A stretch of DNA of 32,000 bases from Deinococcus radiodurans R1 = ATCC 13939 = DSM 20539 (GTDB taxonomy: Bacteria > Deinococcota > Deinococci > Deinococcales > Deinococcaceae). The stretch lies in assembly GCF_000008565.1 (NCBI RefSeq), contig NC_001264.1, positions 60,533 to 92,532 on the forward strand. Reading direction: 5' to 3'. How positions within the stretch are numbered: position 1 is the first letter of the stretch; every line of letters begins with the position of its first letter. Positions 5,073 to 23,705 of the stretch are shown piece after piece. Position numbers and translations under genes: made by a program. The notes under the pieces are model-generated. The model saw only the letters and a program-made list of their open reading frames with translations. It was not told the origin of the DNA and did no database searches.

Positions 5073-7004
5073 ATGACCCAAGCGCCCACCCCGCGTCCCG
5101 CTGCTGACCCGGCCCACTACATCAACTACGCCGAGCTGCTCGACCTGCGGACCAAGAAGTTCATCGTCTTCGGCGTACTGCTGGCGCTCTTTCTCAGTGC
5201 CCTCGACCAGACCATCGTCTCGGCGGCGTTGCCCCGCATCGTCAGCGAACTCAACGGCCTGAACCTGTATTCGTGGGTGACGACCGCCTACCTGCTCTCA
5301 AGCGCCGCGCTGGTACCCATCTACGGCAAACTCTCCGACCTCTACGGGCGCAAGCCGGTGCTGGTGTTTGGCATCGTGGTGTTTTTGATCGGTAGCGCCC
5401 TGTGCGGTCTGAGCGGCGAACCCTTTCTCGGCAACCTCTTCGGCAGCCCGATGATGCAACTCGTCGTGTTTCGCGGGCTGCAAGGCATCGGCGCGGCGGC
5501 GCTCGCCACCGTCGCGTTCGCCATCGTCGCCGACCTTTTCGAGCCGCGTGAGCGGGCCAAATACCAGGGTCTCTTCGGCGCCGTATTCGGCCTTTCGAGT
5601 GTGGTCGGGCCACTGCTCGGCGGCTTTTTGACCGACCAGTTGTCGTGGCGCTGGGTGTTCTATGTCAACGTGCCCATCGGCCTCGTCGCGCTCGCCGTCA
5701 TCTTTGCCAGGATGCCCCGGCTCGCCAGCGGGCTGAGGGGCTCGGTGGATTATCTGGGCGCCGTGCTTATCGTCATCTTTACCGTGCCGCTGCTGCTCGC
5801 GCTCACCTGGGGCGCCGACGGCACGGCGGGCTGGACCGACGCGAAGATGCTCGGCTTGTTCGGCACCTCGCTCGCCGCGCTGCTGGCCTTCATCTTCTGG
5901 GAGCGGCGGCATGAGAGCCCCATCGTGCCACTGACGCTCTTTGCCGACCCGACCATCGCCTGGACGATGACCTCGCGCTTTTTGCTGGGGGCTGGGTTCC
6001 TCGGCGCGGTGCTGTTTCTGACGCTGTATCTGGTCAACGTGGCGGGCTTCAGCGCGACCGGCGCCGGGCTCGCCACGCTGCCGCTGACGCTGGGCTTCGT
6101 CATCGGTGCCCAGGGATCGGGCCTGCTCGCCGCCCGCAGCGGACACTACAAGTCGCTGCTCGTCGGCGCGTATGTGGTGGCGGTGCTCGCCTTCTGGTGG
6201 CTCTCCACGGTGCAGGTGGACACGCCCTACGGCCTGCTTGCCGCGCGCATGTTCCTGGTGGGCCTGGGGCTGGGGCCGTCGGTGTCGCTCTTTACGCTCG
6301 CCGCCCAGAACGCGGTGGCGCCTTATCAAATAGGGGTGGTGACCTCGGTGGGCACCTTTTTCCAGCAGCTCGGCGGAACCATCGGCATTGCCCTCTTCGG
6401 CGCCATTTTGACCAGCAGCCTCAGCAGCCAGCTCAGCACCAACCTGGCCGCCGTGGTTCGCGACGCGCCGCCGCAGCTTCAGGCGCAGCTCCAGCAGTTC
6501 AGTCCGCAGGGCGGGGCGCGGCGCTCGCAGGGCAGCTTCGACGTGCAAAAGACCAAAGCCCAGGCCGCAGCCAGCGTCGCCAGCGCCTTTGACCGGCAGA
6601 CGGCCATCATTGAAGCCGCCGTGCGGAGCGGTGACCCGGCGCGCCTGAGTGCCTTGCAGAGTGATACTCGCCTGAGCCCCGAGGTGCGCGCCAACCTAGG
6701 CCGCATTCCCGCCGCGGCCATTCGCTCGCCGCAGGGCCAGGAGCAGGTCATCAGCGGCCTGCGCCGGGGGATACAGCCCGCCCGGCAGGCCGCCATCCGG
6801 CAAACCAAAGACACCATTGACGCGGTGGGCTTCGCCATTCGCACCAGTTTCGCCCACGCCATCGCGCAGATTTTCCGCGCCGGCATCGGGGTGATGGTGC
6901 TCGCGCTGCTCGCGGTGCTGATGCTGCCTGACCGCCGCCTCGACCTGCGCCGCCCGGCTCCGGCAGCTCCACCCGTCAGCGAGGGGCCGCCCAGCGAGGG
7001 CTGA
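5073..7004 (+). CDS. MFS transporter, DHA2 (EmrB/QacA-like, 14-TMS) family
   Basis: Motifs LDQTIVSAALPRI and GKLSDLYGRKP are present. There are many hydrophobic spans and a long hydrophilic insert before the last TM segment. Confidence 0.85.
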   Translation: MTQAPTPRPAADPAHYINYAELLDLRTKKFIVFGVLLALFLSALDQTIVSAALPRIVSELNGLNLYSWVTTAYLLSSAALVPIYGKLSDLYGRKPVLVFGIVVFLIGSALCGLSGEPFLGNLFGSPMMQLVVFRGLQGIGAAALATVAFAIVADLFEPRERAKYQGLFGAVFGLSSVVGPLLGGFLTDQLSWRWVFYVNVPIGLVALAVIFARMPRLASGLRGSVDYLGAVLIVIFTVPLLLALTWGADGTAGWTDAKMLGLFGTSLAALLAFIFWERRHESPIVPLTLFADPTIAWTMTSRFLLGAGFLGAVLFLTLYLVNVAGFSATGAGLATLPLTLGFVIGAQGSGLLAARSGHYKSLLVGAYVVAVLAFWWLSTVQVDTPYGLLAARMFLVGLGLGPSVSLFTLAAQNAVAPYQIGVVTSVGTFFQQLGGTIGIALFGAILTSSLSSQLSTNLAAVVRDAPPQLQAQLQQFSPQGGARRSQGSFDVQKTKAQAAASVASAFDRQTAIIEAAVRSGDPARLSALQSDTRLSPEVRANLGRIPAAAIRSPQGQEQVISGLRRGIQPARQAAIRQTKDTIDAVGFAIRTSFAHAIAQIFRAGIGVMVLALLAVLMLPDRRLDLRRPAPAAPPVSEGPPSEG

Positions 7005-10325: not shown

Positions 10326-10552
10326 CGCCGCGCTGAGGGGGGCATGAGGCGCATTCTCGGTAAACCTACCCCTAAAGCGAAAAAAACAGTGCCTGGCGCG
10401 GAACTATCCCTTTTCTGACTGCTCGGGTCCTGGGGAAACGGCGTTTTGACGGCGAATTTTGAGGCCCTGGCCTTAATGAAGGCGTCCCAGAGGGGCTCTA
10501 TCCCCCTTTGCCCCCCTTCACAGCCGCAAAGAGATATGTCATGCTGCTCACC

Positions 10553-18634: not shown

Positions 18635-18729
18635 AAACTTGGCAGAGTGAGGTGCTGGCTGATATGAATTTCGGTTGAATCGCGTAGTTTGGCGATTTAA
18701 TCCGAGCGGAGTGTGATGTTCTCTGATAC

Positions 18730-18765
18730 CTGTCACTCCCTGAAAGGTGCTAGATGTCAACGGAA
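18730..18765 (+). repeat. left-end module copy 1 (candidate transposase end-binding site)
   Basis: CTGTCACTCCCTGAAAGGTGCTAGATGTCAACGGAA shares ordered blocks (CTGT..CACT, CCCT, G.AAAG, TGTCAACG.AA) with copy 2 at 18880-18922. Confidence 0.4.
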
Positions 18766-18794
18766 CAACCGGAACCAAGCTCAACACAGTGGAA

Positions 18795-18830
18795 CCCTCA
18801 GCGAACGAATGCGTCTCTGAGGGGCTTTTC
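18795..18830 (+). terminator. terminator-like hairpin (orphan, + strand)
   Basis: CCCTCAG (18795-18801) pairs with CTGAGGG (18817-18823) across a 15-nt loop, followed by GCTTTTCT. No annotated + strand gene lies upstream. Confidence 0.3.
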
Positions 18831-18879
18831 TGATTCCGGGTGTTCCGGGTTCTGGCCTGAGTCCTGAAATCTGCCGGTT

Positions 18880-18922
18880 CTGTTTCACTGACCCTCCTGT
18901 AAAGAATTACGTGTCAACGAAA
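18880..18922 (+). repeat. left-end module copy 2 (candidate transposase end-binding site)
   Basis: CTGTTTCACTGACCCTCCTGTAAAGAATTACGTGTCAACGAAA is in direct orientation relative to copy 1, about 150 bp away. Confidence 0.4.
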
Positions 18923-18944
18923 AAGCCCCCGCACTGGCAGGGGC
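18920..18944 (-). terminator. weak rho-independent terminator after the repressor gene
   Basis: On the minus strand, GCCCC-loop(10)-GGGGC is followed by TTTTTCG. It lies about 20 nt downstream of the alternative-frame stop at 18963. Confidence 0.4.
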
Positions 18945-18985
18945 AGGGACTGGGGCAGAGGCTCAGGCGGTGGTGAGGTTGCCGA

Positions 18986-19708
18986 TCACCCGGACGACGC
19001 GTCCCACCAGGTGGGCGATACGGTCAGGGGCAATGATTGAGGTGTCAGGGTCCACGAAGTCCGGGTTGGCGCTGTCGAGGATGCCGCCGGGCCGCAGCGC
19101 TTTACGACGTGGCCGTCATCCTTCAGGCGGGCCACCACCGGGAAGTTGACCTCTCCCCCGACGCGCTGGTCCACGATGACCACGTCACCGTCGTGAATGG
19201 GGTGTCGGCCACCGGCCATGCTGTCACCGACCACGGTAAACGCGATCAGGTCACGATTTTCGGCAAACTGCCGCTCCACATAGACCACGTCACTGCTCTC
19301 CCAGAGCTGCTGCGGGCCTGCTCCCACCTGACCGGCGATGTAGACCGGGACCTGCTGCACGTCGAACATCAGATTGGCACCAGGGGCTTCAGGGTCGATC
19401 AGATAAAGCAGCTCGTGCGTGGGCTTGTCGAGCGCCACGGCGAGCTTGGTCAGGGTGTCGAAGCTGGGTTTAGTCCAGGTGCCGCTGGTGGTGGTACGGC
19501 CCCGTACAAGGTCATGGATGCTGGTACGCCCAATTCCGGCGTAGTCAGCGAAATCTTTGACGGTGGAGAGGTTGAGCTGCCGCATACGTTCTGCGATCAG
19601 GCCATTCAGTGGCCCTCTCGCCTTCGCCGCGCTGGTAGCAAGTGAGGTGCGTCCCATAGGGCTAACGTTAGCACTAGGATTCGCATTTGCGTATTGAAAT
19701 GTTCGCAT
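18986..19708 (-). CDS. prophage repressor, HTH_XRE + S24 (LexA/CI-type) autopeptidase; C-terminus apparently frameshifted
   Basis: HTH LSTVKDFADYAGIGRTSIHDLVRG, Ala-Gly cleavage context QVGAGPQ, Ser motif GDSMAGG and Lys motif VVKR. After VVKR the frame yields a non-S24 tail. The -1 frame yields a canonical S24 C-terminus that ends at 18963. Confidence 0.8.
   Translation of the reverse strand: MRTFQYANANPSANVSPMGRTSLATSAAKARGPLNGLIAERMRQLNLSTVKDFADYAGIGRTSIHDLVRGRTTTSGTWTKPSFDTLTKLAVALDKPTHELLYLIDPEAPGANLMFDVQQVPVYIAGQVGAGPQQLWESSDVVYVERQFAENRDLIAFTVVGDSMAGGRHPIHDGDVVIVDQRVGGEVNFPVVARLKDDGHVVKRCGPAASSTAPTRTSWTLTPQSLPLTVSPTWWDASSG
19680..19693. promoter_or_regulatory. operator O1 (TTCGCA-TT-TGCGTA)
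   Basis: A 14-bp palindrome with one arm mismatch. Its centre is exactly 22 bp from the centre of O2. Confidence 0.5.
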
Positions 19709-19722
19709 AAGCGAATTAGACT
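19694..19722 (+). promoter_or_regulatory. predicted early promoter Pe (TTGAAA-17-TAGACT)
   Basis: -35 at 19694-19699 and -10 at 19717-19722 with a 17-nt spacer, followed by the AAGGAGG RBS at 19732-19738. Confidence 0.45.
19702..19715. promoter_or_regulatory. operator O2 (TTCGCA-TA-AGCGAA)
   Basis: A 14-bp palindrome with one arm mismatch. It sits in the spacer of the predicted early promoter and covers the repressor ATG. Confidence 0.5.
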
Positions 19723-19743
19723 GAGTGCCTCAAGGAGGTGCAA
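19715..19743 (-). promoter_or_regulatory. predicted repressor promoter Pc (TTGCAC-17-TCTAAT), leaderless
   Basis: Read on the minus strand, the -35 is at 19743-19738 and the -10 at 19720-19715. The repressor ATG (19708) begins 7 nt after the -10 with no SD, implying a leaderless mRNA. The -10 overlaps the Pe -10 by 4 bp. Confidence 0.45.
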
Positions 19744-19744
19744 T

Positions 19745-20029
19745 CTGAGTGCCCTGAACACAAAACGGGTCGAAAGGCGAATGCGGCAGCTCAAGCTAAG
19801 TCGCTCACAGCTCGCTGACCGGGCCGGGATTTCTCGCGGCTACGTCAGCGATTTGCTCAATGGGAGGCGCGGGGGGCGACTGGGTGCCGATGTCATGTTG
19901 AATCTGGCAAAAGCACTCGAAGTGGAGCCTATTTTTTTCGCTTCCTCATTCGCAAATGCGAAACAAAAAAGCCGATCTGGTCGCATTTCTGGCCGGGAAG
20001 GGAGGGAAACGGGTGCCGCACATGAGTAA
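19745..20029 (+). CDS. Ner/Cro-like XRE-family HTH protein
   Basis: HTH LSRSQLADRAGISRGYVSDLLNG. The start is uncertain: either the CTG at 19745, 6 nt after AAGGAGG, or the ATG at 19781. The basic C-terminal tail overlaps the transposase start. Confidence 0.6.
   Translation: MSALNTKRVERRMRQLKLSRSQLADRAGISRGYVSDLLNGRRGGRLGADVMLNLAKALEVEPIFFASSFANAKQKSRSGRISGREGRETGAAHE
19949..19962. promoter_or_regulatory. operator O3 (TTCGCA-AA-TGCGAA, perfect arms)
   Basis: This is the third copy of the palindrome. It lies about 250 bp downstream of O1/O2 and about 50 bp upstream of the transposase start. Confidence 0.45.
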
Positions 20030-22151
20030 GAGCCGTGGGGCGCTGCTGAGCATGACCGAGTTGATGCGGCTCTACGACAAGTCCAAGCCGACCATCGAAC
20101 GCCAGCTTGCCAAGCTGCGGAAGACTGGCACGCCCGCCTACACAGAGAAAGTCTCGGAACGCCACAGCAAGGGGGGCGTGCTGGTGACCTACTACGACCC
20201 CACCACCCTGGGCTGGGAGGTGCCCTCAAGCTGTCTCCATCAAATTCTGGGTGATGGTGACAGCCCCCTGTCTCCATCACCTGTCTCCATCACGACCAGC
20301 AGTCTCCATCAACTCCCAAAACTGTCGGCACAGACGGTGGAAAGCGTCAGCAGTGACGGGGATGTTGCAGATCTGTCTCCATCACAAAACATGATGGTGA
20401 CAGCCCCCGGCTTCGACCCGGCGGCCATCCTGCTCACCCAGCACGGTGACCTCTCCGGTGGGACCTACACCGACACCGGGGACGCTCTGGAGAAACACCG
20501 GGAACTGTTGCCCGTCCTCCAGACCCCGGTGGGCAGCGCCGCCCGGTCCCAGGCCATCGAGCAGCTTGCCCAGCAGCGTGGCGTCAGCACCCGCACCATC
20601 CGCCGCGAGGTCGAGAAGGTCGAGCGCCGGGGCCTGGACGGGCTGAAGCGTCACAAGCGGGCCGATGCGGGCAGCTTCCGGCTTCCGCTGGAAACCCTGC
20701 AACTGGTGGTGTCTGCGCTGGTCAGCAACCCGCCCACCACGTCGGTGGCCTTCATTCACCGCACGCTGATCCGGGCTGTGCCGGACGCCATGACTCTTCC
20801 GCGTGGCAACGGGCGCACCATCACCGTGACTGCCGTGACGGTGGGCCGCGTCAAGCGCATGATGCTCGACCACCCGGTCATGCGCCTGCTGTTCGCCAAT
20901 GCCGATGACCGCAAGGAATTCCTGCGCTCCTACACCGGGCAGGTCGTGGCCCTGCACGCCAACGAGATGTGGCAGCTCGACATGACCCGCTGCGACGTGG
21001 AGGTCGTGGACCCGGAAACCGGGCGCATCTATCGCCCCCGCGTGCAGGCCGTGATCGACGTTTACAGCGGCTGCATCATGGGCATCGCCTTTTCCGAATC
21101 TGAGGACCAGACCCAGGCGGACCTTGCGCTGATGCGGGCACTGATGCGGAAGTCCGGCCCGCTGGCCGACCGTTACCCGCTGTTCGGGCTGCCCAAGCGG
21201 CTCTACATCGACAACGGCAAGACCTATTCCAGCGAGCACTTCCACCGGATTGCTGCCGGGCTGGGCATCGAAATCATTCACAGCCTGCCCCGTGTCTCGC
21301 ACACTCGCGGTGCGGTCGAGCGCTTCTTCGGAACCCTGCACGGACTGGAGCGGGCGATGGTCGGGTACGTCGGTCAGAACGCCGTGGACCGTTCCAGCGA
21401 GGAACTCAAGAAGCTGCGCGTGGCGACCCAGCGGTGGCTGGATACGGGCGTGGACCCCGGCCCCGGCAAACGCCACCAGACCATCCACGAATACCAGAAC
21501 AGCGTTCTGGCGTGGCTGATCGTCGAATACCACCAGCGCCTTGTGGACGGCAAGACCCGCCTGGAACACTTCCGCGAAACCGCGCCCGAATCCAGCCTGC
21601 TGGAACTGGACGCTGGAGAGCTGCTGCTGCTGTTCGCCCGCCGCACCAAGCGCGTGGTCAGGCCGGACGGCACCGTCAGCATCGGCAACGTGGCCTGGAC
21701 GATTCCGGGCGGAAAGCTGGCGCAGTACCGGGGACTGCCGGTGCTGGTGCTCGAAGACCAGTTCGCGCTGGGCGACGAACGCCGGGGCATCGTCTGGCAG
21801 GACGAACGCACCGGACGCCTGGAAATGCTCGGCACCGCCGTGCCCGCGCCCACCGTGGCAGCCAGCATCGCCGCCGGTGAGGAACGCCGCGCCCAGAAAG
21901 CACAAAAAGCTGCTGCCCTGCGGAGTGCCGACGAACTGGCCCGCGAGTACACCAACCCCGCGCTGATGGTGACCGAGCAGCTGCGCCGCGAACTGCCCGT
22001 GCAGGCCGTGACGCCGCTGCAACCTGCCGCCCGCGCCCAACTCAACCCCGAACCCCCGAAGCCCGATCTGGGCGACTTCGGGAAAGCGTTCCTGAAACCC
22101 GCTGACGACCTCGACGCGCTGCTGCGCCAGATCAAGGAGGAAAACGAGTGA
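20013..22151 (+). CDS. Mu-type DDE transposase (MuA-like; rve/D-D-35-E core)
   Basis: N-terminal HTH MTELMRLYDKSKPTIERQLAKLRKTG and a second HTH around GVSTRTIRREVEKVERRG. The catalytic contexts are WQLDMTRCD, LYIDNGKTYSS and GAVERFFGTL, with exactly 35 residues between the second D and the E. I chose the GTG at 20013, 6 nt after GGGAGGG; ORF-track 19956 or the ATG at 20022 are alternatives. Confidence 0.85.
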   Translation: MPHMSKSRGALLSMTELMRLYDKSKPTIERQLAKLRKTGTPAYTEKVSERHSKGGVLVTYYDPTTLGWEVPSSCLHQILGDGDSPLSPSPVSITTSSLHQLPKLSAQTVESVSSDGDVADLSPSQNMMVTAPGFDPAAILLTQHGDLSGGTYTDTGDALEKHRELLPVLQTPVGSAARSQAIEQLAQQRGVSTRTIRREVEKVERRGLDGLKRHKRADAGSFRLPLETLQLVVSALVSNPPTTSVAFIHRTLIRAVPDAMTLPRGNGRTITVTAVTVGRVKRMMLDHPVMRLLFANADDRKEFLRSYTGQVVALHANEMWQLDMTRCDVEVVDPETGRIYRPRVQAVIDVYSGCIMGIAFSESEDQTQADLALMRALMRKSGPLADRYPLFGLPKRLYIDNGKTYSSEHFHRIAAGLGIEIIHSLPRVSHTRGAVERFFGTLHGLERAMVGYVGQNAVDRSSEELKKLRVATQRWLDTGVDPGPGKRHQTIHEYQNSVLAWLIVEYHQRLVDGKTRLEHFRETAPESSLLELDAGELLLLFARRTKRVVRPDGTVSIGNVAWTIPGGKLAQYRGLPVLVLEDQFALGDERRGIVWQDERTGRLEMLGTAVPAPTVAASIAAGEERRAQKAQKAAALRSADELAREYTNPALMVTEQLRRELPVQAVTPLQPAARAQLNPEPPKPDLGDFGKAFLKPADDLDALLRQIKEENE
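20231..20408. repeat. array of seven 12-bp motifs CTGTCTCCATCA (5 direct, 2 inverted) inside the transposase ORF
   Basis: Direct copies are at 20231, 20268, 20281, 20300 (one mismatch) and 20373. Inverted copies TGATGGTGACAG are at 20252 and 20392, each extended to an identical 17-mer TGATGGTGACAGCCCCC. Confidence 0.85.
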
Positions 22152-22930
22152 CCCGAGGCAAGATTCTGGCTGAAACCATCATGCAGGAGGCGGTGGCCGC
22201 GCCCACCATCACCCTGCCGCCCGTGCAGCCCGCGCCGGAGCCTGCGGCCCCCACCATCCTCGGCACGCCCGCCGTGCGCCTGGTGGTCAACCGGATTGCC
22301 TACGCCGTCAAGCGGGGGAGCCCCCTGTGTATCGTGTCTGGTGAGCACGGCGCGGGCAAAACCACGGCGGCCACGCTCTACGCCAATTCCAACCCCCGCG
22401 CCCTCTACTGGCAGGCCCCACCGGAGTACAACGCCCGCGAGATCGTGGCGGACCTGTGCGACAAGCTGGGCATCCGCACCGGGGAAGCGTGGCGCGTGCG
22501 TACCAGCGTCCTAGTTTCCCACTTGCAGGAACACCCCCACACCGTGCTGATCGACGAGGCGCAGCGGCTCGATTACCGCGCCCTGGACATGATCAAGTAC
22601 GTCGCGGACACGGCAGGCGTGACCTTCGTGCTGCTCGGCTCGCCCTGGCTCGACCGGGTGATCGACCGTCACACCGACATCGCCAGCCGGGCGTGGGTTC
22701 GTGTGCGGGTCAAGCCGATCGAGCTGGACGCTTTTACTGCGCTGTACGAGCCGATGGGCTACAGCAAAAAGGTGCTGAAAGCCGTGCACGAGGTCACCAA
22801 GGGCGTGATGCGGTCCATCACTGCGCTGTTCGATCACCTCGACGAGGCCATCGCCGGGACGCCGGGCATGGCCCGCGCTGACCTGACGCCGGACCACGTT
22901 CGTGGCGTGGCCGATGAGGTGCTGTCGTGA
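22148..22930 (+). CDS. MuB-like AAA+ ATPase (transposition target-capture protein)
   Basis: Walker A SGEHGAGKTT and Walker B VLIDEAQRL. There is a GTGA start/stop overlap with the transposase and an AGGAGGA RBS. The position matches Mu B. Confidence 0.8.
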   Translation: MTRGKILAETIMQEAVAAPTITLPPVQPAPEPAAPTILGTPAVRLVVNRIAYAVKRGSPLCIVSGEHGAGKTTAATLYANSNPRALYWQAPPEYNAREIVADLCDKLGIRTGEAWRVRTSVLVSHLQEHPHTVLIDEAQRLDYRALDMIKYVADTAGVTFVLLGSPWLDRVIDRHTDIASRAWVRVRVKPIELDAFTALYEPMGYSKKVLKAVHEVTKGVMRSITALFDHLDEAIAGTPGMARADLTPDHVRGVADEVLS

Positions 22931-23355
22931 GCCGCCGCAAGCAGGACCTCAAGGTGGAAGGCAAGCGCCGCCGCGCCAGCGGTGAGGGCAGCAACAGCAA
23001 GCGGTTTGCCTTCGTGAAGATGCCGGACGGGCGCGAGGCGCGGATTCCCGCTGCCAAGGACGCGGGGACGTTTGTCTGCCTGGCGACGCCTGACGGGGGA
23101 TGGCCCGACCGCGCCGAAATCACGCTGCTCTACGACGTGACCCACCTGGTGGAAGGCAGCACCTTCCGCATCAAGGAAATGCGTCCCGGCCACGGTATGG
23201 GGCAGACCAAGACGGTGCGCGTCATTGAAACCGACTTCGAGATTGAACAGCACGAAGGCTGCTACGGGCAGGCCAAGCGGGCGCTGCTGTGCGTCCCGGT
23301 CCTGAGCGGCAAGGAAGCCAATGAACTGAGTGCCGACGACCTGGAGGTGAACTGA
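22927..23355 (+). CDS. hypothetical early protein (basic N-terminus)
   Basis: 142-aa ORF with a GTGA overlap with the upstream gene. No recognisable motif. Confidence 0.5.
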   Translation: MSRRKQDLKVEGKRRRASGEGSNSKRFAFVKMPDGREARIPAAKDAGTFVCLATPDGGWPDRAEITLLYDVTHLVEGSTFRIKEMRPGHGMGQTKTVRVIETDFEIEQHEGCYGQAKRALLCVPVLSGKEANELSADDLEVN

Positions 23356-23705
23356 TGCGCCTCCTGTCCGACGAGCGCCACCAGCACCTGGAGGCGGCGG
23401 CCCGCTGCTACAGCACCATGACCCGCCGCGCCCTCCTGGCCGTTCTGGCTGAGCGCTCCCCTGCCACCACGCTCGACATTCAACGGGCGTTCCCCGCGTT
23501 GTCCAACGAACAGCTCAGTCAGGACATCCGGCCACTGCTCAAGGCCGGACTGGTGAAGAGCCCGGGCCGCCTTGGCCGAGGCCGCCCGCACTTCTACTCG
23601 CTGACGCCGACGGGCATTCAGGCCCTGCGGGACCTGCATGACGAACTCTCAGCGCTCATCGCTGCTCTGCCTGTGGAGGCCCCCGATGACGAAACCCACG
23701 AATGA
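23355..23705 (+). CDS. winged-helix DNA-binding protein (MarR/ArsR-like)
   Basis: RRALLAVLAERSPATTLDIQRAF...LLKAGLVKSPGRLGRGRPHFYSLTPTG. A GGAGG RBS and a 1-nt TGATG overlap are present. Confidence 0.55.
   Translation: MRLLSDERHQHLEAAARCYSTMTRRALLAVLAERSPATTLDIQRAFPALSNEQLSQDIRPLLKAGLVKSPGRLGRGRPHFYSLTPTGIQALRDLHDELSALIAALPVEAPDDETHE

Follow-up and report, generated by a model that had tools for sequence, protein, structure and literature searches.

The subject of this report is an array of seven short repeated sites inside the transposase gene of the Mu-like prophage of Deinococcus radiodurans R1, named RadMu in the literature. The array lies in a stretch of 32,000 nucleotides (nt) of contig NC_001264.1 (positions 60,533 to 92,532), called the window below, and coordinates given without a locus name are those of the window. 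The array is under selection at the level of the DNA, keeps its geometry in related loci, and co-varies in sequence with the N-terminal domain that belongs to the transposase in whose gene it lies.

Sites in the transposase gene

The gene and its sites are the following.

20022-22151, plus strand: transposase gene (709 amino acids) of Mu-like architecture with a DDE/rve core; holds the array
20231-20242, plus strand: site 1, CTGTCTCCATCA; outer and less conserved, absent or re-oriented in distant relatives
20252-20263, minus strand: site 2, CTGTCACCATCA on the minus strand; opens the conserved six-site core
20268-20279, plus strand: site 3, CTGTCTCCATCA; 16 bp past site 2
20281-20292, plus strand: site 4, CTGTCTCCATCA; 13 bp past site 3
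20300-20311, plus strand: site 5, CAGTCTCCATCA; 19 bp past site 4, closes cluster I
20312-20372: spacer between the clusters, 61 bp; free in sequence and fixed in length (73 bp start-to-start) in 12 loci
20373-20384, plus strand: site 6, CTGTCTCCATCA; opens cluster II
20392-20403, minus strand: site 7, CTGTCACCATCA on the minus strand; 19 bp past site 6, with the mosaic crossover of relatives just after it

Seven copies of the site are thus found at 20231-20403. An earlier note on this DNA, prepared from the sequence alone, had given their coordinates and sequences exactly: CTGTCTCCATCA at 20231, 20268, 20281 and 20373, CAGTCTCCATCA at 20300, and the inverted form TGATGGTGACAG at 20252 and 20392, each time within an identical 17-mer (TGATGGTGACAGCCCCC). 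Its inverted pairs (12-9-12 and 12-7-12), codon phases and peptides were also right, the direct copies being read as CLHQ, LSPS, PVSI, SLHQ and LSPS. The two 17-mers are read as GDGDSP and MMVTAP. The inverted form is not the exact reverse complement of the direct form, motif position 6 being T in direct copies and A in inverted ones, and the site is therefore written CTGTC-N-CCATCA.

When up to two mismatches were allowed, the window contained 10 matches as against 2.1 +/- 1.5 in shuffled sequence, and none of 100 shuffles reached 10; seven of the ten fall inside 178 bp, and every match with no more than one mismatch to the exact 12-mer lies in the array. The 12-mer was sought in 60 kb of D. 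radiodurans prophage and flanking DNA, made up of the window and of L008, a 46-kb segment of the 412-kb replicon NZ_OV024759.1 (window coordinate = L008 coordinate + 14152; window 18700-24000 matches this replicon at 100%). In both the window and L008 the array was the top cluster of repeated 8-mers. It starts 1,519 bp from the left end of the prophage and 210-390 nt past the transposase start codon, inside the early transcript, and no copy of the motif was found in the left end (18712-18990) at two or fewer mismatches.

Two further observations concern the text of the array. The inverted copies are followed by CCCCC (GCCCCC; window 20252-20268 and 20392-20408), and the same is seen with a different motif in the distant relative L010 (10234-10251 and ~10377-10394), so that for inverted copies the site may extend a few bases on that side. 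In L001, a 97%-identical metagenome-assembled relative, a run of N at ~5770-5780 (aligned to window 20217-20284) falls exactly over sites 1-4, the assembly apparently having been broken by the repeats; arrays of this kind can thus interrupt assemblies.

Selection on DNA rather than peptide

The window was compared with the DNA of fourteen related loci (41-85% amino acid identity in the transposase), giving fifteen loci in all. The same 12-mer is read in all three codon phases. Two relatives, L002 (85% amino acid identity) and L006 (D. kurensis, 77%), share the motif of the window, from which they differ at 1 of 84 and 0 of 84 motif bases, respectively, as against 48 of 114 and 50 of 114 linker bases between the copies (42-44%; Fisher p = 4e-13 and 3e-15); the DNA of the catalytic core is only ~80% identical. 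Because the motif is better conserved than the core of the enzyme, and is so in three phases, the constraint acts on nucleic acid. The claim of the earlier note that the conserved object is the DNA and not the peptide was borne out by other relatives as well, which carry a different 12-mer at the same seven positions, changed in concert in three phases. In the comparison of related loci that it had proposed as a check, motif bases were held among same-motif relatives, and the geometry was kept in the 12 core loci, whose linker peptides could not be aligned; the question is settled in favour of the DNA. The peptides LSPS, PVSI and SLHQ exist only because the DNA must read CTGTCTCCATCA. A cis-acting DNA code here dictates the sequence of a protein linker, which bears on how low-complexity linkers in the proteins of mobile elements are read.

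Array geometry and motif classes

An array was present at the same place in the gene in all fourteen related loci, starting 204-264 nt past the start codon. A six-site core with the orientations - + + + + - and start-to-start distances of 16-13-19-73-19 bp is shared by 12 loci including the window (11 of the 14 relatives), and this geometry is held at protein identities as low as 46% and with unalignable linker peptides; L015 and L018 have arrays of other geometries. Site 1 and any extra sites past site 7 differ from locus to locus. Among the fifteen loci eleven different 12-mers were found, as listed here by locus.

Window, L002, L006: CTGTCNCCATCA
L005: CTGTCNCCGCCA
L007, L101: CACGCNCCATCA
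L009: CACGCNGGATCA
L097: C[TA][GC]TCNCCGTCA
L010 (same phage as viral contig L003): CTGNNACCGACA
L098: CTGNNNGGGACA
L011: TGCGGAGTATCA
L099: ACTTTAGGGTCA
L015: ACCAGAGGGTCA
L018: TTCAGAATGTCA

The 3'-terminal CA is invariant in all classes. When the copies of one locus are compared, positions 7, 9, 11 and 12 are constant; 2 of 12 loci show variation at positions 8 and 10, and 10 of 12 at position 6. Such an information profile looks like that of a protein site. Each locus keeps the motif to its array, where it has 5-8 copies, as against 0-3 one-mismatch strays in up to 46 kb.

One pair of relatives is mosaic. The transposases P0005 (L101) and P0006 (L009) are 96-100% identical from about amino acid 131 to the end and 52-59% identical before it, and the joint in the DNA lies immediately past site 7 (~window 20404-20420); the divergent block takes in the N-terminus of the repressor as well as Cro, the winged helix and the array. 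By this comparison the winged helix and the array are exchanged as one unit, here along with the immunity genes.

Domain structure of the transposase

The array follows directly on the coding region of the domain proposed to read it.

20022-20225, plus strand: winged helix-turn-helix domain (amino acids 1-68), proposed array reader; recognition helix at amino acids 22-35 (..KPTIERQLAKLRK..), beta-hairpin wing at amino acids 41-58

The transposase coding sequence in RefSeq begins at the same ATG (20022), and the protein is 100% identical to a D. radiodurans protein; it matches Pfam rve (8.2e-10, amino acids 312-423) and PHROG 310 "transposase" (3e-56, over amino acids 174-665). A model of amino acids 1-68 was built with AlphaFold2 from a 26-sequence alignment. 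This model (predicted local distance difference test score, pLDDT, 85.6) has a strand at residue 9, helices at 11-18 and 22-35 and a hairpin at 41-48/51-58, the fold of a winged helix-turn-helix. Profile matches of the region were weak (HTH_5/HTH_36), and the top 50 Foldseek matches of the model were generic winged-helix proteins with E values of 0.03 or higher. PF02316 (HTH_Tnp_Mu_1) matched none of 26 members, an HMMER profile search of the PDB returned no MuA or MuR chain at E values up to 10, and hhalign gave the domain a probability of 4.3% against MuA amino acids 1-81 and 0.7% against MuR. The order of elements (strand, two helices, beta-hairpin) presumably resembles that of the I-alpha subdomain of MuA, and this is taken as a lead only.

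In the full-length model amino acids 77-130 have a pLDDT of ~30 and are devoid of secondary structure, helical domains resume at amino acid 133, and the catalytic fold begins at about amino acid 316. Since the array spans amino acids 70-129, it coincides nearly exactly with this disordered segment. The models and profile matches support the earlier description of the segment as a linker between an N-terminal helix-turn-helix domain and the rest of the transposase, and the linker is disordered in the full-length model.

Motif class and recognition helix

Residues of the recognition helix are numbered as in the window (T24-I25-E26-R27-Q28). The identity of residue 26 goes with motif positions 7-8, Glu being found with CC (five classes), Lys with GG or GT (five) and Asn with AT (one); residue 28 goes with position 9, where Arg accompanies G in six of seven classes and Gln, His or Lys accompany A in three of three. 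R27 is nearly invariant. The wing in turn goes with the 5' half of the motif, KGGxLV being found with CTGTC and TGAxKx with CACGC. Amino acids have general preferences for bases (Glu for C, Lys and Arg for G, Asn and Gln for A), and the pairings of residues 26 and 28 with motif bases agree with these. Two minimal pairs were found independently of each other, namely TIERQ/CCA versus TIKRQ/GGA within the clade of 72-85% identity and TIERR/CCG versus TIKRR/GGG among relatives at 50%. For P0024, a transposase only 46% identical to that of the window, the motif was predicted from helix and wing as CTGTCNCCG[C/A]CA before its DNA was fetched; the motif observed, C[TA][GC]TCNCCGTCA, was as predicted at 11 of 12 positions. 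That the repeats form a protein-binding array for the N-terminal domain, as the earlier note had suggested, is in this way supported indirectly, motif class following recognition helix and wing.

Prophage organization

The array-bearing gene has the following neighbours.

~18712: left end of the prophage, TGTG.. (TGTGATG..); homology with the 97%-identical relative L001 begins there
18986-19708, minus strand: CI/LexA-type repressor (S24 peptidase and HTH_3)
19694-20029: Cro/Ner-like helix-turn-helix protein (HTH_3)
22148-22930: MuB-like AAA+ ATPase (PHROG 296, 2.8e-29)
23355-23705: HTH_20 protein
19680-19693 and 19702-19715: operator-like palindromes TTCGCAnnTGCGAA, 22 bp apart, between the repressor and Cro genes
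19949-19962: operator-like palindrome TTCGCAnnTGCGAA, between Cro and the transposase

In L008 the early genes are followed by genes for terminase, tape measure, tail and lysis, and relatives carry Mu Gp27-like and terminase genes. The element is a Mu-type transposable prophage by its rve transposase, MuB-like ATPase, divergent repressor and Cro genes, left end starting with TG and Mu-type late genes. No match to the prophage was found among deposited phage genomes in the phage database.

The TTCGCAnnTGCGAA palindromes (TTCGCA..) are probably the operators of the immunity module. Repressor and Cro are of one type (X) in the window, L001 and L009, which have these palindromes, and of a second type (Y, assigned by protein type) in L002, L005, L006 and L007; TCCGCAnnTGCGGA palindromes (TCCGCA..) stand at equivalent places in L002, L005 and L006, whereas a search of L007 yielded none. 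Types X and Y are distributed independently of the motif classes of the array. The result also serves as a positive control for the co-variation approach.

At the left end, two TGTCAACG[GA]AA[CA]A repeats (18754 and 18911) are unlike the array motif and may be end-type transposase sites. The right end of the prophage was not located in L008, where the candidate end repeats TGTCAACGNAA do not recur; a GC hairpin resembling a terminator (L008 38603-38620) is all that matches the left-end region in inverted orientation. On the right side of the prophage region, beyond the window, L008 38739-41467 holds MmeI-like type IIL restriction-modification and methyltransferase genes, which may be cargo of the phage or may belong to the host. 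The left end alone (window 18711-18973) has a copy of 263 bp and 97.7% identity, unannotated, in D. wulumuqiensis (NZ_CP031163.1, 612909-613171); this may be a remnant, or else some other element may end there. In L022, a Mu-like prophage from a metagenome at 34% identity, six GTGCGGACA repeats (2750-2925) form a cluster at the left end, an end-type feature, and coliphage Mu begins with the same 11 nt as the terminus of L022, TGTATTGATTC.

Proposed function

The seven repeats are very probably sites for the transposase's own N-terminal winged-helix domain (amino acids 1-68), and from the sequence comparisons we strongly infer that this domain binds them physically. The fuller reading, in which the sites are read by the N-terminal domain and also play an enhancer-like part in assembling the transposition complex, is given a probability of about 0.6. 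Transposase molecules would dock on the array through their N-terminal domains and so come into contact with the molecules that occupy the two phage ends; docking would in this way help to assemble the transposition complex, as the enhancer of phage Mu (internal activation sequence, IAS, or E element) does. Stimulation of transposition by the array is suggested by analogy only. That the array acts like the Mu IAS is plausible, and its anatomy fits because it is internal, lies ~1.5 kb from the left end, consists of two clusters and has sites unlike the candidate end-type repeats.

Several points weigh against an enhancer read by the N-terminal domain. The co-variation rests on few independent specificity switches, and L011 is an exception to the pairing of Arg28 with G9. 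The domain and the array are only ~200 bp apart and hence are co-inherited regardless of function; linkage is therefore no part of the case for binding, which is made from the repeated switches and from a code that makes chemical sense. Distant relatives with short linkers (L012-L014, L016, L017 and L020-L023, at 34-53% identity) have no array in the gene, and not all sites of the window lie on the same face of the helix. HMMER against the PDB, Pfam, hhalign and Foldseek detected no homology between the domain and MuA I-alpha or MuR. Because neither the right end nor end-site repeats there were found in L008, this copy of the prophage may be defective or truncated, or it may have a right end that has diverged beyond recognition. 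Finally, autoregulation is the main rival to an enhancer role, and sequence alone cannot separate the two.

A more tentative extension, possible though somewhat doubtful, is that winged helix and adjacent array form a portable, self-contained specificity cassette of Deinococcus Mu-like phages, an enhancer overprinted on linker codons with a two-residue code (26 and 28 reading bases 7-9), at least 11 classes and one invariant geometry. As it is made, the domain would meet its sites within ~200 bp of its own coding DNA (cis-preference), and with classes so diverse, transposable phages that share a host or compete would neither activate nor poison one another's transposition. If this were so, the phages would have a second layer of "immunity" separate from the repressor.

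A transposition enhancer is described in detail only for phage Mu in the literature examined, and the literature searched yielded no description of this array or of an enhancer within an open reading frame (ORF). The present data supply a concrete candidate for one in a whole clade of Deinococcus phages, at an unexpected place, inside the transposase ORF. The eleven motif classes are a natural series of domains and sites on one geometry and offer a candidate specificity code (Glu, Lys or Asn at 26, Arg or Gln at 28).

Alternative explanations

The rival that survives best keeps the same binder and gives it another job, the N-terminal domain on the array either throttling transcription of the early operon as a roadblock (autoregulation) or tethering new transposase near its own gene (cis preference). 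All evidence for the N-terminal domain as the reader applies equally here, and the position of the array in the early transcript, right after the sequence coding for the domain, suits both co-translational capture and a roadblock. The N-terminal DNA-binding parts of insertion sequence (IS) transposases are known autoregulators, as in IS1 InsA and IS911 OrfA. Seven sites, a strict two-cluster geometry and a spacer fixed in length at 46% identity nevertheless exceed what a roadblock needs, and the sites are not at a promoter, the only promoter-like site being at 19694-19722. We regard this alternative as unlikely, with the qualification that autoregulation and enhancer roles do not exclude each other, the Mu E element itself overlapping the operator region (PMC3145075).

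It is improbable that another protein binds the array, be it the CI-like repressor, the Cro/Ner-like protein, another helix-turn-helix protein of the phage or a host factor. In favour of such a binder, several helix-turn-helix proteins are encoded nearby, and the Mu enhancer overlaps operators (PMC3145075). Among the early proteins that were compared, repressor and Cro were rejected as binders, having separate palindromic operators (19680, 19702 and 19949) and types that are uncoupled from motif class; the suggestion of a secondary operator for these proteins, made in the earlier note, fails on the same grounds, as their type varies independently of the 12-mer. The HTH_20 protein was rejected in turn, since its versions in the window and in L006 have only 19% identity and yet both loci carry the same motif. 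A host factor would leave unexplained why, in hosts and phages so closely related, there are eleven motif variants whose changes go with a residue of the phage.

A role of the array as RNA is unlikely, and the specific proposal that the inverted copies act as RNA or single-stranded DNA, forming hairpins in the message of the transposase by which translation, pausing or stability would be controlled, was judged very improbable. The 195-nt RNA folds at -73.4 kcal/mol as against -55.3 +/- 4.5 in shuffles (z = -4.0), with predicted pairing of site 2 with site 3 and of site 1 with site 7, and all 12 core loci retain the inverted neighbours; good folding is, however, to be expected of any inverted repeats, and sites 4 and 5, being direct copies, have no partner. 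Inverted neighbours differ by 1.21 as compared with 1.17 for any other pair of copies, and selection for hairpins was rejected on this ground: being no more alike than other pairs, the neighbours show no selection for complementarity beyond their being copies of one motif. The variable positions 2-6 are uncompensated (for example U.U at position 6 in the window), and the motif co-varies in a chemically sensible manner with residues of a DNA-binding helix.

About as remote is the proposal, carried over from the earlier note, that the ATG-ATG-GTG at 20391 starts an N-terminally truncated transposase (compare the Tn5 inhibitor protein) whose synthesis is set by occupancy of site 7. The codons are in frame, the product would be free of the winged-helix domain, and leaderless translation, which is common in Deinococcus, counts in its favour. 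The ATGs are, however, the mere text of the inverted motif (TGATGG) and are not conserved over the motif classes, the corresponding codons being TTG GCG GTG in L005 and GTG ATC CAG in L009. On reading the sequence no Shine-Dalgarno was seen upstream of 20391, and the only promoter-like site in 19500-20700 was that at 19694-19722, between the repressor and Cro genes, with none near 20391; the claim of a start here was not upheld.

Hardly credible at all is the array as a functionless by-product (a dispersed small repeat of the host, a product of slippage or duplication, or a peptide repeat), which a disordered and fast-evolving linker would tolerate, given that beyond chance one-mismatch matches no other copy occurs in the 60 kb of D. 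radiodurans DNA (32-kb window and 46-kb L008) or in the host flanks of the relatives L002, L006 and L007, that the three reading phases exclude a peptide repeat, that motif bases are far better conserved than the DNA of the catalytic core, and that geometry is kept over deep divergence with the motif replaced in concert.

Comparison with known systems

The enhancer-like array proposed here was compared with systems of known function. The Mu enhancer (IAS/E) lies ~1 kb from the left end (PMC3145075) and the MuA N-terminal domain touches it with one part and the ends with another (PMC3145075; PMC5977238). In Deinococcus the array is likewise an internal cluster of putative transposase sites distinct from the candidate end repeats, at ~1.5 kb, and like the Mu enhancer it has two site clusters with a spacer between them (sites 1-5 and 6-7). 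Its presumed reader, like that in Mu, is the extreme N-terminal domain of a MuA-type transposase, ahead of the other DNA-binding and DDE domains (PMC3145075; PMC5977238), and a MuB-like ATPase is encoded next door in both.

There are also differences from Mu. The Mu enhancer is located in an AT-rich intergenic operator region and partly overlaps the operators of the c repressor (PMC3145075), whereas the Deinococcus array is inside the transposase ORF and apart from the operators. The Deinococcus spacer is not conserved in sequence and has no evident IHF-type site, no site for a bending protein having been identified in it. In Mu the DNA-binding domain of the c repressor is homologous to MuA I-alpha; the Deinococcus repressor, in contrast, belongs to the CI/LexA type (S24) and is unrelated to the transposase's N-terminal domain, for which no homology to I-alpha could be demonstrated. 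The array would thus work like the Mu enhancer by analogy, and it is not filed as a member of that family because it is in an ORF, is apart from operators, goes with an unrelated repressor and is read by a candidate domain of undetectable homology.

Autoregulators of IS elements and transposons, such as IS1 InsA and IS911 OrfA, are alike in that an N-terminal helix-turn-helix module recognises specific sites on its own element. Their sites are terminal inverted repeats that overlap a promoter, whereas the Deinococcus motif is absent from the left end and forms a fixed seven-site array 210-390 nt inside the coding sequence. Iteron and centromere arrays (plasmid Rep iterons, R1 parC/ParR) share the multiple short direct and inverted sites, the two clusters and the specificity classes of binder and site. 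They differ in that the Deinococcus array is in an ORF and its element replicates by transposition; an array of this type was rejected for the present locus, the neighbours being repressor, Cro, transposase and MuB-like ATPase, with no replication-initiator or partition genes adjacent. Regulatory sites in coding DNA, such as lac O2 inside lacZ, are alike as a protein-binding DNA code laid over an ORF. That example is a single auxiliary operator, whereas the Deinococcus array places seven sites on the codons of a disordered linker, in three phases, and each change in the specificity of the sites brings another linker peptide.

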